From a virus, in the UHGV virus genome UHGV-0342252: a DNA stretch of 12,818 nucleotides, one strand, 5' to 3'. The notes under the pieces are model-generated. The model ran no database searches, was not told the origin of the DNA, and was given only the letters and a program-made list of their open reading frames with translations. Below are positions 1,551 through 5,945 of this stretch, one piece after another. Every line of letters begins with the position of its first letter. The stretch's first letter is position 1. The position numbers and the translations under genes were made by a program.

Positions 1551-3431
1551 TTAATACTCCGTCACGTTTTCCTGTCGCCACGCCTCGTCATATTCCGATT
1601 TCGGCATATTGGCGATGTAGCTATAAGGCGATCCTGATTCAAGTTGCAGGAACTGGTGCGATTGCTCGTCAAGGAACAAAGGGACGCCACCTTCCCAACC
1701 TTCGCCGTTACGTTGTTTTTCAAGCATCAAAACAGATGCCGGAGATGCCAGTAGCTGTTCGTCCTTCTCTGACATCTTTTCACCACTCTGAACTCTCTGT
1801 AACGCTCTCTCGCGAGCCTTGTTACGCCAGATGATGAAAAGGTTGTCTGTCAGGTCTGTTATCGCTCCAGAGCCTTTTACGTCCATTTTCCCGGTTGGTT
1901 TTTCTTCGCTGTCTCCTTTTCGCGAGTGAGTAACGAGAATGACGTGGGAGTTTGTTTTGTTTTTGAAGTCGCAAATCGAGTCAACAAACGCCTTCTGCCC
2001 GTTATAGTCATCGTCGCCTATGCCACATTTCATCAGGCTGTCGATGATGAATAACTGGATCCCGTATCGGCGGCGAGCGTAGTCGAATATTTCGATCAGC
2101 CTGTCGGCTTTCGCCGTTCCGGTCAGACCAAACACCCAAAGTCTTTCGTCATAAAATTTAAATGCAGAGTCAATTTCCAGCACTGGCGGCATCTTGCAGC
2201 ACGTCGCCTGACGGGTAAGGCGCTTAAGGAGAATACCAGGCTTCAGCTCAAGTGACGCGATGCACGTCTTCACACCCTGACGCATTGCCTCAAGTGCCAT
2301 ATGCCCGACAACCTCCGTTTTTCCGTGACCGTTCACACCATTGACCAGCGTCAACTCTGCCTCACGGAACTGGAATTTATCTGCCAGAGATTCCCACGGT
2401 GGATTAAACAGATACTGCTGCTTGCCGTAGAAAGCGTTGATAGTGTCCTGGTAAAACTCTCGCGCGCTGTAGAGTTCTTCAGGATCGAAGTAGGATGCCG
2501 TGCCGATGTACTGCCAGATTTCATCCTCGGTAACACCGTTCATCAGGCATTCGTTGATGTCTTTGTACGGCAGAGTAACAAGACGGCAACGATGTTCACC
2601 GAGTCGGCTTGCGATTTCCCTTGCGGCTTCACGACCAACATCATCAACGTCCATCGAGATGAATATTTCCTCAAACCTGTCGAGGTTGTGATACTCAAAC
2701 TCAATCCACTGTTGCTTAGCGCCTTTCCCGCCACCAAACGGCACGGATAACGCCGAGATGCCGTATTGCGCATAGCTCATACAATCAATTTCGCCTTCGC
2801 AAAGTACAACCGCCCTCACGCCAGCGTCCAGAGCCTGCCATCCGAACAGACAAGGTTCGCAATCACCTTCTGCCATAATGACTTTCTTCCCGTCCGGGCG
2901 CTCAGTGCTGATTCGCTTGACCTGCAACAACTCACCATCGCGTTTGTACGGAATCACCAGAGCATCCAGTTCTCGCTCTCCATTCCACACCTTGCCGCTG
3001 ACAACCTCGTAGCGCTTTACGACTTCTGGCGATATGCCACGCGATTGCAGGTACTCAAGATGGGATTCTGTTCTGGTAACGTAGCGGGCGATTTTCTTGC
3101 GATCAGGTCTGGAGAATTTCTTCTCACGTTTGGCATCGAAATGGTGATCGTCATCCTTGATACCGAGAAATGCTTTCGCTTCCTGCATAGCCTGATGCAG
3201 GTTAATTCCTCGACATGCCATCCACAAATCAAGCATGTCACCGCCGTCCCCCTCAGCGAAATCAGCCCATTTTTTCTTGCCGCTAAGGTTGACCTTAAGG
3301 CTGTTTCCCTTGTCACCGTTGACGTTACCGGCAACCCACTCATGCCCCTCTTTCTTGCCGTTTGGCAACAGGTGCGGAGCCACCCTGTCAACCTGCGCCC
3401 AAAGCAGGTCGCTAAGTTCACTTGGCGTCAT
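1551..3431 (-). CDS. primase-helicase fusion (Toprim primase + DnaB/T7 gp4-type SF4 helicase), 626 aa
   Basis: Toprim motifs (VVLCEGEIDCMS; ISMDVDDVGREAA), Walker A (NGVNGHGKTEVV), Walker B-like (QLFIIDSLMK). N-terminal region resembles a primase zinc-binding domain but has no cysteines. ATG overlaps the stop of a small upstream ORF (ATGA). Confidence 0.85.
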   Translation of the reverse strand: MTPSELSDLLWAQVDRVAPHLLPNGKKEGHEWVAGNVNGDKGNSLKVNLSGKKKWADFAEGDGGDMLDLWMACRGINLHQAMQEAKAFLGIKDDDHHFDAKREKKFSRPDRKKIARYVTRTESHLEYLQSRGISPEVVKRYEVVSGKVWNGERELDALVIPYKRDGELLQVKRISTERPDGKKVIMAEGDCEPCLFGWQALDAGVRAVVLCEGEIDCMSYAQYGISALSVPFGGGKGAKQQWIEFEYHNLDRFEEIFISMDVDDVGREAAREIASRLGEHRCRLVTLPYKDINECLMNGVTEDEIWQYIGTASYFDPEELYSAREFYQDTINAFYGKQQYLFNPPWESLADKFQFREAELTLVNGVNGHGKTEVVGHMALEAMRQGVKTCIASLELKPGILLKRLTRQATCCKMPPVLEIDSAFKFYDERLWVFGLTGTAKADRLIEIFDYARRRYGIQLFIIDSLMKCGIGDDDYNGQKAFVDSICDFKNKTNSHVILVTHSRKGDSEEKPTGKMDVKGSGAITDLTDNLFIIWRNKARERALQRVQSGEKMSEKDEQLLASPASVLMLEKQRNGEGWEGGVPLFLDEQSHQFLQLESGSPYSYIANMPKSEYDEAWRQENVTEY

Positions 3432-3535
3432 GATTCCCTCAGATTGAGATTTTTAAACCAGAAATCGACAAACGAAATACTTAACCAGCCGTGGTTATAA
3501 CCAGCGACCAGTAGCGATTTGATTTTTGATTTCAT
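3428..3535 (-). CDS. possible small hydrophobic peptide (35 aa) bridging O-like and helicase genes
   Basis: ATG at 3535..3533 begins 3 nt after the O-like stop; stop TGA overlaps the helicase ATG (ATGA). Product MKSKIKSLLVAGYNHGWLSISFVDFWFKNLNLRES. No independent SD; could be non-coding spacer. Confidence 0.3.
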   Translation of the reverse strand: MKSKIKSLLVAGYNHGWLSISFVDFWFKNLNLRES

Positions 3536-3538
3536 GGT

Positions 3539-4399
3539 TCACCTGTCGAAAAACACGTAGCCAGTTTTCGATACGGTGATTGCGGATGATGGTTTGGATT
3601 GTGGTTGAATGGTTTCTGGCTTTTCGTCGTTCCAGCGCTGACCGTTCAGGTAGCTCGATGGTAACAACCTGTCGAATCCGAACTGCTTACCATTCCTGCA
3701 TGCGATGTCTTCTGCCAGCATCGTGGCAAACTCGCTTGCCGTACCCCTGGTAGTTTTACGCCATTCCCTGAACTGTGTTCTGAATGCCGAAGCTGCGTTT
3801 TTCTTCCCGGCTTTCCGCATGCCTGCACACCAGAATATTTCCTCGAATGCCTTGTCGGTTTCTTCGTGACGGTCATGTGATTTTTCACACTCCGTCCGAA
3901 CACTTTCGGACATAGTGTTTTTATTATTTCTTTTTTCTTTTGTAATAGTTTCTTTTGTGTGTCCCTGTTTTGGTGACAGCGCTGTCACCGTTTTGGTGAC
4001 ACTTTTTGTCACCAATGCAGTGACATTATCACCAGAGTAGTGACACCCTTCTATTTGCCATTCCTCGATGTTCTTGTTAGGCCCGATTTGCTGGCCTTCG
4101 CGAAGGATAACCTTCATCGCGATAAGCTCATTCTTGGCCTTGTTTACCTTCTGTCTTGGCAGCCTGGTAATTTGAGCTAACTGACTATCAGAGATGCGAT
4201 CCATCTTTTTACCGTAGCCGTATGTTTTACGGCATATGGCGTGGGCAACCTTGCTCTGATTTTTCGTTAAATCTGCGCCGATAAGCTCTTCATACAGGGC
4301 ATTTGCAAGACGGGTATAACCATCTTCAACTTCTGCCACACGACGCTCCACAGGCCGTTGTGAAGGCCTTAAATGTGTTACGGTTGCAAGATTACTCAT
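3539..4399 (-). CDS. replication initiator, lambda O-like N-terminal domain with a distinct C-terminal domain (286 aa)
   Basis: N-terminus ([55 protein letters not shown]...GPNKNIEEW) closely parallels lambda O as I recall it; iteron repeats and an A+T-rich tract lie mid-gene; strong SD (AGGAG) before the ATG. The C-terminal half does not resemble lambda O. Confidence 0.85.
3915..4047. other. ori-like element inside the O-like gene: GTGACA-type iterons (3972..4047) next to an A+T-rich tract (3915..3960)
   Basis: About seven copies of GGTGACA/TGTCACC in alternating orientation, including perfect palindromes GGTGACAGC/GCTGTCACC, followed in gene direction by a T/A-rich stretch; same layout as lambda ori within O. 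Iterons encode the VT-rich linker ([17 protein letters not shown]). Confidence 0.7.
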
Positions 4400-4538
4400 G
4401 ACCTTTCTCCTTCTGCATCAGCTTCACTTTTTCCAACTCAGCCCGGAATCGACCAGGCTGCTTGAAGCTGGACAGGAAGCGATCACGTAGTATGTGTTTG
4501 TGAATTTTGTCCTGGTAAGGACTGAGTTGTTTTGTCAT
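4392..4538 (-). CDS. small basic ORF (48 aa) between cII and the O-like gene
   Basis: Strong SD (AGGAG) 6 nt before ATG 4538..4536; stop overlaps the O-like ATG by 8 nt (ATGAGTAA). Product [48 protein letters not shown]. The SD+ATG appear to be those used by O in lambda. Confidence 0.4.
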
Positions 4539-4548
4539 AATGACTCCT

Positions 4549-4626
4549 GTGGATTGATCCAGTAATGACCTCAGAATTCCATCTGGATTTGTTCAGAACG
4601 CTCGGTTGCCGCCGGGCGTTTTTTAT
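4549..4626 (+). ncRNA. oop: OOP-like antisense RNA overlapping the 3' end of cII
   Basis: Plus-strand sequence ...GAACGCTCGGTTGCCGCCGGGCGTTTTTTATT matches the lambda oop terminator region as I recall it (GC-rich hairpin plus T-run ending about 4624); a CATAAT -10 candidate lies at 4536..4541. The -35 is not convincing, so the 5' end is approximate. Confidence 0.45.
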
Positions 4627-4864
4627 TGGTGAGAATCGAAGCAACTTGTCGTGCCAATCGAGCCATATCGTCGTCAACGACGCCCCATTCAAGAACAGCA
4701 AGCAGCATTGAGAACTTTGGAATCCAGTCCCTCTTCCACCTGCTGATCTGCGACTTATCAACTCCCACAGCTTCCGCTGTCTTCTCAGTTCCAAGCATTG
4801 CGATTTTGTTAAGCAACGCACTCTCGATTCGTAGAGCCTCGTTGCGTTTGTTTGCACGAACCAT
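4571..4864 (-). CDS. cII: transcriptional activator CII (97 aa)
   Basis: Translation from ATG 4864..4862 ([97 protein letters not shown]) matches lambda CII from memory nearly residue for residue. The ORF-track ORF 4571..4924 extends upstream without support. Confidence 0.95.
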
Positions 4865-4880
4865 ATGTAAGTATTTCCTT
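4842..4880 (+). promoter_or_regulatory. pRE-like promoter with CII box TTGC-N6-TTGC
   Basis: TTGCGTTTGTTTGC at 4842..4855 on the plus strand (the CII recognition repeat), followed by AAGTAT -10 candidate about 4870..4875; reads through cro in antisense toward cI, as in lambda. Confidence 0.7.
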
Positions 4881-4943
4881 AGATAACAATTGATTGAATG
4901 TATGCAAATAAATGCATACACCATAGGTGTGGTTTAATTTGAT

Positions 4944-4983: not shown

Positions 4984-5199
4984 TTAAGCGGCTTTGTGTT
5001 CCGGCGGGAACAAGCCATCTAGCGTTGTCTTGCTCCCCAATTTATTCAGCGCCTTTACCAGGCGACGGCACGACTCTAAATCTGGAGTCCGGATACCTGA
5101 CTCGTAGTTAGCTAAGCGGGACTGGTTCCAGCCACACGCGCCTGCTAACGCAGATTGAGTGATGCCAAGCTTTTTCCGTTCGTTGGCAATGTTGTTCAT
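4984..5199 (-). CDS. cro: Cro-like HTH repressor (71 aa), not lambda Cro type
   Basis: First gene downstream of pR, divergent from cI; SD AAGGA before the ATG. HTH (LAGACGWNQSRLANYESGIRTP) is very similar to the cI HTH (LAELCGWASQSRIGNYESGTRSV), as expected for proteins sharing operators. Confidence 0.75.
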   Translation of the reverse strand: MNNIANERKKLGITQSALAGACGWNQSRLANYESGIRTPDLESCRRLVKALNKLGSKTTLDGLFPPEHKAA

Positions 5200-5303: not shown

Positions 5304-5945
5304 ATGCGCATGAACAGAACAGAAACTATCGCCGCGCGTATCAAGCGATTACGGGAAGATAAAGGGCTTTCACAGAAGGCTCTGGCGGAGCTTTGCGGCT
5401 GGGCTTCACAATCTCGGATCGGCAACTATGAATCAGGAACCAGAAGCGTTAGTGTTGATGACGCAGAGGTAATAGCTAAAGCTTTGGGCGTCGCTCCGGC
5501 AGAACTGCTTTTTGGCGACAACTATCAGGGACAATACAAGCCAGGGGAAAAGTTTCCGTTGATTAGCTGGGTTAGCGCAGGTGCATGGAGTGAGGCCGTA
5601 GAGCCGTACAACCCTCAGGCAGTGGATGAGTGGTATGAATCAGATTGTCACGTTGTCGGTGACGCCTTCTGGCTCAGGGTTCAGGGCGACTCAATGACAG
5701 CTCCTACCGGCCTTAGCGTTCCTGAGGGTATGCTGGTTCTGTTCGACACTGGAAAGGAAGCCGTTAATGGAAGCCTGGTAGTTGCGAAGCTGACAGATGC
5801 TAATGAAGCCACGTTCAAGAAGCTAATCATTGATGGCGGTAACAAATACCTGAAAGGGCTTAACCCTGCCTATCCGTTGATCCCAATCGACGGCAACTGC
5901 AAGATAATCGGCGTAGCAGTGCAGATGATGATGAAATTCTCCTGA
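5304..5945 (+). CDS. cI: CI-type prophage repressor with LexA-like S24 autopeptidase domain (213 aa)
   Basis: N-terminal HTH; C-terminal domain with Ala-Gly cleavage site (SWVSAGAW), Ser (QGDSMTAP) and Lys (VVAKL) resembles the P22 C2 / lambda CI family. Alternative start at ATG 5310. Confidence 0.9.
   Translation: MRMNRTETIAARIKRLREDKGLSQKALAELCGWASQSRIGNYESGTRSVSVDDAEVIAKALGVAPAELLFGDNYQGQYKPGEKFPLISWVSAGAWSEAVEPYNPQAVDEWYESDCHVVGDAFWLRVQGDSMTAPTGLSVPEGMLVLFDTGKEAVNGSLVVAKLTDANEATFKKLIIDGGNKYLKGLNPAYPLIPIDGNCKIIGVAVQMMMKFS

Follow-up and report, generated by a model that had tools for sequence, protein, structure and literature searches.

The closest described relatives of the locus studied here are the replication modules of phage ES18 (gp59-gp60-gp61, AY736146) and of epsilon34, g341c, mEp043 and Sf101, in which an initiator gene, a 35-aa gene and a primase-helicase gene follow one another in the same order as in our window (the whole stretch of DNA analysed, 12,818 nucleotides). 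The module is therefore already known: ES18 and its relatives have been annotated with it since 2005, in the case of ES18 under the entries 'similar to lambda gpO', 'similar to lambda ori' and 'putative primase/helicase; similar to phage T7 gene 4'. It is also treated in PMC2629481, PMC10307801 and PMC8951638, and our reading agrees with these three papers and with the ES18 GenBank annotation; the latter, together with later papers, is taken here as the published view of ES18. A search of the accessible literature, to which the ES18 genome paper does not belong, found no experiment on a replication module of this type.

Several other systems share a part of this arrangement. The O/P/ori module of lambda resembles that of the window by the N-terminal domain of its initiator, by in-gene iterons 1 to 4, with which the four of the window are in register, and by a nearly identical AT-rich block; in contrast, the window has no P, the C-terminal region of its initiator is unrelated to that of O, and a phage primase-helicase takes the place of host DnaB recruitment. 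P22 gene 18/gene 12 follows the same logic (PMC8022706), an O-like initiator containing in-gene iterons being combined with a replicative helicase of the phage and not with a loader; but the gene 12 product is a DnaB-like helicase, whereas that of the window is of the gp4/Twinkle type and carries a Toprim primase in the same polypeptide. T7 gp4 and mitochondrial Twinkle have the same fold and the same domain order as the latter, namely zinc-binding domain (ZBD), RNA-polymerase domain (RPD)/Toprim and SF4 helicase; T7 gp4 differs in that it has a Cys4 zinc ribbon and operates with its own polymerase and a transcription-activated origin. Metazoan Twinkle, like the window protein, has a ZBD devoid of zinc ligands. 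According to PMC3610141, it is a helicase only, its primase activity having been lost owing to sequence changes in the primase domain, whereas the Toprim acidic residues of the window protein are invariant.

Among Shiga-toxin (Stx) phages, the Eru5 type (Stx2a_F403, phi24B, Min27; PMC8951638) has the same primase-helicase and the same C-terminal half of the initiator, with 97 to 98.7% identity over window positions 1551-3923. The N-terminal domain of the Eru5-type initiator (24B) is however HTH_36, and that of the window Phage_rep_O. Moreover, in several Eru5-type phages the Walker A motif of the helicase is interrupted by an intein-like insertion of 342 aa. The Eru1-3 types of Stx phages (PMC8044961) were also considered as a match, and rejected as different modules, Eru5 being the relevant one.

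The module of the window is an E. coli prophage module made of a lambda-O-type initiator with an in-gene origin and a phage-encoded, T7-gp4-like primase-helicase, without lambda P (Table 1). It belongs to a lambdoid prophage of the mEp043/Sf101/ES18 type, and is carried by 298 of 5,426 complete E. coli genomes (about 5%). The operon reads cro-cII-DUF2740-O-35aa-PH-NinB-NinE (PH, primase-helicase); no P-, DnaC- or DnaB-like gene was found in it, nor any Phage_lambda_P match. The ES18-type set is present in the same order (C-terminal core and tail of the initiator, 35-aa gene, primase-helicase). The last 109 residues of the initiator are 99 to 100% identical in ES18-type phages. Over the module, and for the primase-helicase gene itself, mEp043 and Sf101 are 98.8 to 98.9% identical to the window, and the primase-helicase gene of ES18 has about 88% nucleotide identity.

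Table 1. Features of the replication module, in window coordinates
Feature	Coordinates	Strand	Basis
Primase-helicase gene, 626 aa, T7 gp4/Twinkle type	1551..3431	-	ORF, Pfam, phrog_239, T7 gp4/Twinkle alignments
SF4 helicase domain, aa 321-626	1554..2471	-	AAA_25, DnaB_C, T7 gp4 alignment
Primase RNA-polymerase/Toprim domain, aa 96-320 (EGE 212-214, D261, D263, D291)	2472..3146	-	Toprim_2, T7 alignment
Zinc-less zinc-binding-domain-like module, aa 1-95	3147..3431	-	TIGR01391, AF2, Foldseek
Conserved 35-codon gene (MKSKIKSLLVAGYNHGWLSISFVDFWFKNLNLRES), equivalent of ES18 gp60	3428..3535	-	ORF conservation, phrog_21848, ES18 annotation
Replication initiator gene, 286 aa	3539..4399 (stop codon included)	-	ORF and translation, PF04492, TIGR01610, lambda O alignment
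19-residue C-terminal tail, candidate primase-helicase docking peptide	3542..3598	-	Partner co-occurrence, recombinants, codon turnover
Helical C-terminal core domain, aa 180-262, motif AFEEIFW...GKK...	3614..3862	-	Conservation profile, AF2 model
Inverted repeat flanking the AT-rich block	3887..3918 (arms 3887-3900 and 3905-3918)		Repeat search pair I5
AT-rich unwinding block, 83% A+T	3919..3959		Alignments with lambda, ES18 and PhiR12_1; composition
Four origin iterons, TGTCAC-N6/7-GTGACA	3960..4045		Repeat search families D1, D2
N-terminal origin-binding (winged-helix) domain, aa 1 to about 117	4049..4399	-	Pfam, TIGR01610, BLASTP

A first-pass annotation of this DNA had described the initiator as keeping a lambda-O-like N-terminal domain and an in-gene origin, and both descriptions are borne out. 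Residues 20-114 match Phage_rep_O (PF04492) with E=1.1e-37 (128.8 bits, for a cut-off of 28.7), the protein matches TIGR01610 with E=1.6e-30 (105.4 bits, for a cut-off of 45.5), and its residues 1-157 are 49% identical to lambda O by BLASTP. Within the gene lie, successively, four iterons (4026-4045, 4006-4025, 3982-4001 and 3960-3978, spaced by 20 to 24 bp), the AT-rich block and an inverted repeat whose 14-nt arms are 86% complementary and 4 nt apart; the latter occupies the position of the right-hand part of ori in lambda. Counted on both strands, the iteron pattern occurs 13 times, where 2.65 +/- 1.93 matches would be expected, and 13 was reached in none of 200 shuffles. A further, exact iteron-like site, at 5646-5663, might have been a fifth O site, but is treated as a coincidence, because it lies within the cI gene and that gene is 100% identical in phages that have a different replication module.

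The AT-rich block is also a junction of mosaic recombination, with homology breakpoints at window positions 3923 and 3927, and four natural genomes joined at this shared block form a complete two-by-two set: lambda has lambda iterons and P, PhiR12_1 the iterons of the window and P, ES18 lambda iterons and the primase-helicase, and the window its own iterons and the primase-helicase. In PhiR12_1, the segment equivalent to positions 4049-4399, which encodes the N-terminal domain, is 99.8% identical, and is there fused to a lambda-type C-terminus followed by P and ren. ES18 differs from the window by its lambda-type iterons and lambda-like N-terminal domain, whereas the window, mEp043, Sf101 and PhiR12_1 share the TGTCAC...GTGACA specificity. 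These recombinants show that the helicase gene brings along the C-terminal half of the initiator, and that the iterons come with the N-terminal half.

That the C-terminal region is unrelated to that of lambda O, another point of the first-pass annotation, holds by all comparisons made: no BLASTP similarity is found past residue 157, the two regions belong to disjoint PHROG families, and profile-profile comparison (hhalign) finds no relation between them, with a probability of 0.1%, so that this is not an ordinary, P-interacting O C-terminus. Its core is predicted by AF2 to consist of four helices (pLDDT 92). The depth of this family, 367 clusters, comes from a HMMER search of a representative library; a word-indexed search with the initiator C-terminus gave almost only near-identical fragments. 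A primase-helicase gene is found downstream in 79 of the 79 IMG/VR loci that have a window-type C-terminal region and room downstream. However, the same helical core occurs elsewhere in initiators preceding DnaB-like, DnaC/IstB-like or lambda-P-like genes, which makes four partner types overall, and the globular core is therefore generic, not partner-specific. The C-terminal domain had been presumed to be the partner-recruiting part; this stands in so far as the C-terminal half is inherited with the helicase gene, and needs correcting as to the core, since it also accompanies other partners.

The last 19 residues behave differently from the core. The tail motif is present in all 15 loci that have a primase-helicase of at least 65% identity, and in none of the 22 loci where the partner is DnaB, DnaC or P; in three further loci, where the primase-helicase identity is about 60%, the tail is different and longer. 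In S135 and SI5, the whole initiator is exchanged except for its last 19 codons, DNA homology breaking off sharply at window position 3598, such that the tail sits on a different C-domain next to the same primase-helicase. Its amino acids are conserved despite synonymous codon turnover, including switches between TCN and AGY serine codons. Judged from these alignments, the tail is the only part of the initiator C-terminus that always tracks the primase-helicase (in loci at or above 65% identity), and it does so also on initiators with a different C-domain. As tail and partner are genetically adjacent, their co-occurrence is partly due to linkage.

Between the two large genes lies the 35-codon gene. 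It starts 3 nt past the initiator stop codon, its own stop codon overlaps the primase-helicase start (ATGA), and the last initiator codons, GAC AGG TGA, contain the AGGTGA that serves as its Shine-Dalgarno sequence. The ORF is intact in 20 loci, with 42 to 100% amino acid identity, and its product matches phrog_21848 (E=4e-26). This gene had been overlooked in the first-pass annotation.

The downstream gene encodes, as had been proposed, a single polypeptide with Toprim and SF4 helicase domains. The protein matches phrog_239 with E=1.6e-171, and aligns with T7 gp4 (E=5e-23, residues 191-539) and Twinkle (6e-14). Toprim_2 matches residues 209-296 (E=3e-12); the EGEID, DVD and KDINE motifs align with EGEID, DMD and KDANE of T7, and 52 sequences of 38 to 85% identity all have E212/E214, D261, D263 and D291. 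AAA_25 and DnaB_C (SF4, T7 gp4/DnaB-type) match residues 355-594, the latter with 23.9 bits, below its Pfam cut-off of 27. Walker A (GHGKT, 368-372), Walker B (IIDS, 462-465) and THSRK (501-505) are all preserved among its helicase motifs, which are intact. A lysine, K519, appears to align with the arginine finger of T7 gp4, which speaks against the interpretation proposed below. Since a domain search found no DnaB N-terminal domain in the protein, it is not a member of the DnaB family.

The N-terminus is more unusual. The dnaG profile TIGR01391 aligns to residues 26-143, and the DnaG zinc ligands C40/H43/C61/C64 fall on N, a gap or G, D57 and E60. A Cys4 or CHC2 zinc site is absent from this protein and from all of its 57 homologues, down to 38% identity, the ligand columns being N, G, D and E. 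The zinc-binding-like N-terminus had been announced as cysteine-free, which is very nearly exact: there is a single cysteine in residues 1-120, C73, and it is off the ligand positions. A canonical Cys4 site appearing upon resequencing had also been envisaged; as 57 of 57 homologues are without it, the missing site is a family trait and not a sequencing error. About 17 ZBD-like positions are nonetheless nearly invariant in the same 52 sequences. All structure predictions (AF2) were made on single chains; with the model that bears on the N-terminus (pLDDT 93), Foldseek retrieves the ZBD and RPD of Aquifex DnaG (2au3) at 1.4e-12, and an isolated DnaG ZBD (1d0q) at 6e-3. In this predicted model, the N-terminus is a DnaG zinc-binding-domain fold without zinc ligands, and the protein is likely to prime with this zinc-free domain.

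The question arises as to how such a module initiates replication. We consider it probable that the lambda-O-type N-terminal domain of the initiator binds the iterons lying in the initiator gene, and that the C-terminal region recruits the phage primase-helicase, which loads itself and primes for host Pol III. The initiator would melt the adjacent AT-rich block, as the O-some of lambda does. Whereas lambda O delivers host DnaB via P, the C-terminal region would here attract a hexameric, T7-gp4-like enzyme by means of a generic four-helix core and a short partner-specific tail. By analogy with gp4 and Twinkle, this helicase would load on the exposed single strand without help and also make the primers, synthesis being left to host Pol III; the translationally coupled 35-aa protein is probably an accessory of this step. 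We thus infer origin melting, a contact between tail and helicase, self-loading and active priming; replication may plausibly also dispense with DnaB, DnaC, DnaG and the DnaK chaperones of the host.

The recruiting surface could instead be the whole helical core, as first supposed, with a tail that is incidental and kept by linkage or as ribosome-binding site of the 35-codon gene. Core and primase-helicase are indeed co-inherited, from a junction at the AT-rich block, and the end codons of the initiator do provide the AGGTGA. But the core also precedes DnaB-like, DnaC/IstB-like and lambda-P-like genes, S135 and SI5 have the tail and the same primase-helicase without it, and synonymous changes have left the tail residues ahead of the Shine-Dalgarno sequence conserved, so that we regard this scenario as quite unlikely. 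It is very improbable that the module still relies on host DnaB, loaded by a factor of the host or by an unlinked one of the phage, with the primase-helicase reserved for another role, for example late or recombination-dependent replication. A core found elsewhere with DnaB, DnaC or P partners could in principle contact host DnaB or DnaC; the primase-helicase, however, occupies the exact place of P in lambda or of the gene 12 helicase in P22, is translationally coupled to the initiator and has intact helicase motifs, in an operon without a loader gene.

Active priming is open to doubt in the self-loading scheme that we favour, given that T7 gp4 requires its ZBD for template-directed priming and that all four zinc ligands are replaced across the whole family. 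The zinc-less N-domain might have made the primase inactive, as that of metazoan Twinkle is, with host DnaG priming as for the P22 gene 12 helicase; in work by Wickner in 1984, P22 gp12 is said to function with DnaG. The animal protein is, according to PMC3610141, only a helicase through primase-domain changes. On the other hand, 52 homologues down to 38% identity show no change in the Toprim acidic residues and a strongly conserved ZBD-like fold, and the AF2 model is confident throughout. Such a constraint would not be expected on a dead active site, and we therefore hold a helicase-only enzyme to be unlikely.

A wider, tentative proposal, which may well prove wrong, is that in this large family the initiators combine a promiscuous helical core with a short, exchangeable C-terminal peptide, and that this peptide chooses the helicase system brought to the origin. 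The 19-residue tail, possibly together with the 35-aa protein, would then be a portable signal for the docking of a self-loading primase-helicase, an enzyme priming with a zinc-free domain and working with host Pol III.

As such, the module is textbook lambdoid mosaicism and nothing new. Its helicase half is that of the Eru5 type of Stx phages, and the replication type of Shiga-toxin phages has been linked to virulence. Three points may make it worth a small experimental study: a primase family of a bacterial virus that has kept its catalytic site and lost its zinc site, the candidate 19-residue helicase-recruiting peptide and the conserved 35-aa gene. Together, these three details would reveal the way in which a replisome without a loader assembles at an origin of the lambda type.

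The window is a lambdoid prophage's early region, and none of the operon genes (see table) is a P, DnaC or DnaB-like gene. Over the 2.85-kb initiator and primase-helicase region, Sf101 and mEp043 are 98.8 to 98.9% identical to the window and Salmonella phage SEN22 91%; 298 of 5,426 complete E. coli genomes carry it, almost always on the chromosome. Directly upstream, the 3' end of the DUF2740 gene overlaps the first few initiator codons; its RefSeq and PHROG label, 'tail protein', looks like an annotation error passed on between records, given that the gene lies between cII and O.

Features of the replication region and its surroundings
Feature	Position	Strand	Remark	Found by
cI repressor	5304-5945	plus		
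cro	4984-5199	minus		
cII	4571-4924	minus		
DUF2740 gene	4392-4538	minus	48 aa	
initiator	3539-4399	minus		
iterons (four), TGTCAC-N6/7-GTGACA	3960-4045		inside initiator gene, 20-24 bp spacing	repeat search
inverted repeat	3887-3918		after AT-rich block	repeat search and alignment
35-codon ORF	3428-3535	minus		
primase-helicase	1551-3431	minus		
NinB, NinE, NinF		minus	downstream of primase-helicase, in that order	

The first-pass annotation had described a lambda-O-like initiator paired with a primase-helicase instead of P. The observation is confirmed and most of its interpretation stands, subject to the refinements below. Phage_rep_O matches initiator residues 20-114 (E=1.1e-37), as does TIGR01610, and BLASTP gives 49% identity to lambda O across residues 1-157 with no similarity after. 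The in-gene origin, also proposed there, is real and its anatomy lambda-like, since an alignment to lambda ori puts all four iterons in register with those of lambda (their half-site is different), the roughly 35 bp that come next, CACACAAAAGAaACTATTACAAAAGAAAAAAGAAA, are near-identical to lambda's AT-rich block, and an inverted repeat follows. The iteron pattern is far more abundant than expected by chance (13 matches on both strands versus 2.65 expected, a number reached by 0 of 200 shuffles). An exact match, TGTCACGTTGTCGGTGAC, also occurs at 5646-5663, inside cI and 1.6 kb from the origin. About 0.005 such matches are expected by chance; cI is 100% identical in CurroJimenez_Bas106 and mEp213, whose replication module differs, and this site is therefore probably a coincidence.

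Beyond the N-domain, the initiator is unrelated in sequence to lambda O, as the first reading had it: the two C-termini match disjoint PHROG families, and a comparison of profiles from 147 window-type and 67 lambda-type sequences returned a probability of 0.1%. Four phages form a 2x2 table of iterons and N-domain versus C-terminus and partner. Lambda has its own iterons, N-domain and C-terminus, with P; PhiR12_1, 99.8% identical to the window along 3927-4399, joins window-type iterons and N-domain to a lambda C-terminus, P and ren; ES18 joins lambda-type iterons and N-domain to a window-type C-terminus and primase-helicase; and the window combines its own type of iterons and the primase-helicase. 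Each of the four junctions lies inside the common AT-rich block. A third N-domain, HTH_36, is joined to the same C-terminal half and helicase in Stx2 phages phi24B, Min27 and F403. Thus, N-domain and iterons travel together, as do C-terminal half and partner, which is the classical lambda picture from lambda/phi80/P22 hybrid studies.

The C-terminal region had been presumed to be the partner recruiter as a whole. It consists of two parts, a core and a tail. The core is not specific to the primase-helicase: among 61 bacterial loci encoding initiators with a window-type core, the partner is a primase-helicase in 22, a DnaB-like helicase in 9, a DnaC/IstB-like ATPase in 7 and a lambda-P-like protein in 6, with no recognisable partner in 17. 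Vibrio phages agree, the P-like matches there being weak. The part that tracks the primase-helicase is the extreme C-terminus. All 15 loci with a primase-helicase at least 65% identical encode an initiator that ends in [IV]T[VI]S[KE].G[YL]VF[FIYL], a motif absent from all 22 loci with other partners; in three loci, where the primase-helicase is about 60% identical, the tail is longer and includes (E/Q)VF(I/V). In Salmonella phages S135 and SI5, the N-domain is HTH_36 and the C-domain differs, yet the initiator closes with the window's 19-residue tail, and the 35-aa gene and primase-helicase that come next are the same; DNA homology between these phages and the window sets in abruptly at 3598, precisely 19 codons ahead of the initiator stop. 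Linkage contributes to this association, because tail and partner are adjacent. Across genera, the tail peptide is conserved through codon changes, among them serine TCN/AGY switches, so the constraint is on the peptide and not just on the DNA. We infer that the tail contacts the primase-helicase. In bacterial loci L111-L155, the tails of core-bearing initiators group by partner type (for example, TPDWAKDLV ahead of DnaC/IstB-like genes in Pasteurellaceae, NVDPSLIPEFLK ahead of lambda-P-like genes in Rodentibacter, QQITVQIFKGEMA ahead of DnaB-like genes in Halomonadaceae), a hint that the tail selects the partner more generally.

That the partner is a single Toprim plus SF4-helicase polypeptide is borne out by alignment of residues 191-539 to T7 gp4 (E=5e-23) and Twinkle (E=6e-14), by Toprim motifs EGEID (212-216), DVD (261-263) and KDINE (290-294), aligned to T7 EGEID, DMD and KDANE, and by Walker A GHGKT and Walker B IIDS. 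A lysine aligns with what we take to be the T7 arginine finger. The DnaG model matches residues 26-143 with its N-terminal part, and the AlphaFold model of residues 1-330 (pLDDT 93, pTM 0.89) retrieves Aquifex DnaG ZBD+RPD (2au3, 1.4e-12), the isolated DnaG ZBD (1d0q, 6e-3), human Twinkle and a T7 primase fragment. The claim of a cysteine-free N-terminus needs one correction, as residues 1-120 hold a single cysteine, C73, in a helix past the ribbon; the DnaG zinc ligands C40, H43, C61 and C64 align with N, a gap or G, D57 and E60, and an alignment of 57 homologues, down to 38% identity, contains no Cys4 site. The ZBD-like segment is strongly conserved despite ligand loss and the Toprim acidic residues are invariant, so the protein is probably an active primase whose template-binding domain works without zinc, and not a Twinkle-like relic.

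In vB_EcoP_24B (L004, 1501-4407), Min27 and the F403/F451 Stx2 phages, 342 residues are inserted exactly within Walker A (GHGK|...HN|TEVV) of a protein otherwise 96 to 99% identical and annotated only 'P'. The first inserted residue is Ala and the last two are His-Asn, with Thr next; the insertion looks like an intein in the P-loop.

Between initiator and primase-helicase lies a 35-codon ORF, MKSKIKSLLVAGYNHGWLSISFVDFWFKNLNLRES. It starts 3 nt past the initiator stop, behind an AGGTGA made by the last initiator codons, and judging from the ATGA overlap of its stop with the next start codon it is translationally coupled to the primase-helicase gene. The ORF is intact, at exactly 35 codons and 42 to 100% identity, in 20 loci from Enterobacterales (Escherichia, Salmonella, Pantoea, Erwinia, Citrobacter, Providencia, Xenorhabdus, Arsenophonus, Serratia and others), with consensus MKS.IK.LL.AGYNHG.LS..FV..F..L.LR; it matches phrog_21848 and ES18 gp60, whereas the RefSeq entries for mEp043 and Sf101 omit it. 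A few loci seem to have no copy: L103, L104 and L105 gave no match, and in the first two the gap ahead of the primase-helicase is too short for it. In Symbiopectobacterium and Arsenophonus endosymbiont loci (L100, L109), initiator and 35-aa gene are broken by frameshift or fusion, internal stop or truncation, suggesting decaying prophage modules.

The hybrid module is already described: in the ES18 record (2005), gp59 is 'similar to phage lambda gpO' and contains an origin 'similar to lambda ori', gp60 is entered as unknown, and gp61 is a 'putative primase/helicase; similar to phage T7 gene 4'; Stx2a_F403, which has 1551-3923 in common with the window, is the reference of the 'Eru5' replication type (PMC8951638). 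A limited literature search turned up nothing on the zinc-less ZBD, on the tail motif or on how widely the 35-aa gene is distributed.

Most likely, the initiator would assemble on the iterons and open the AT-rich block, and its C-terminal tail would dock the phage primase-helicase. By analogy with gp4 and Twinkle, the latter would load itself and prime, with host Pol III extending the primers. In lambda, DnaK/DnaJ/GrpE release DnaB from P. Replication by the mechanism proposed here is predicted to be independent of this step, as well as of DnaB, DnaC and probably DnaG.
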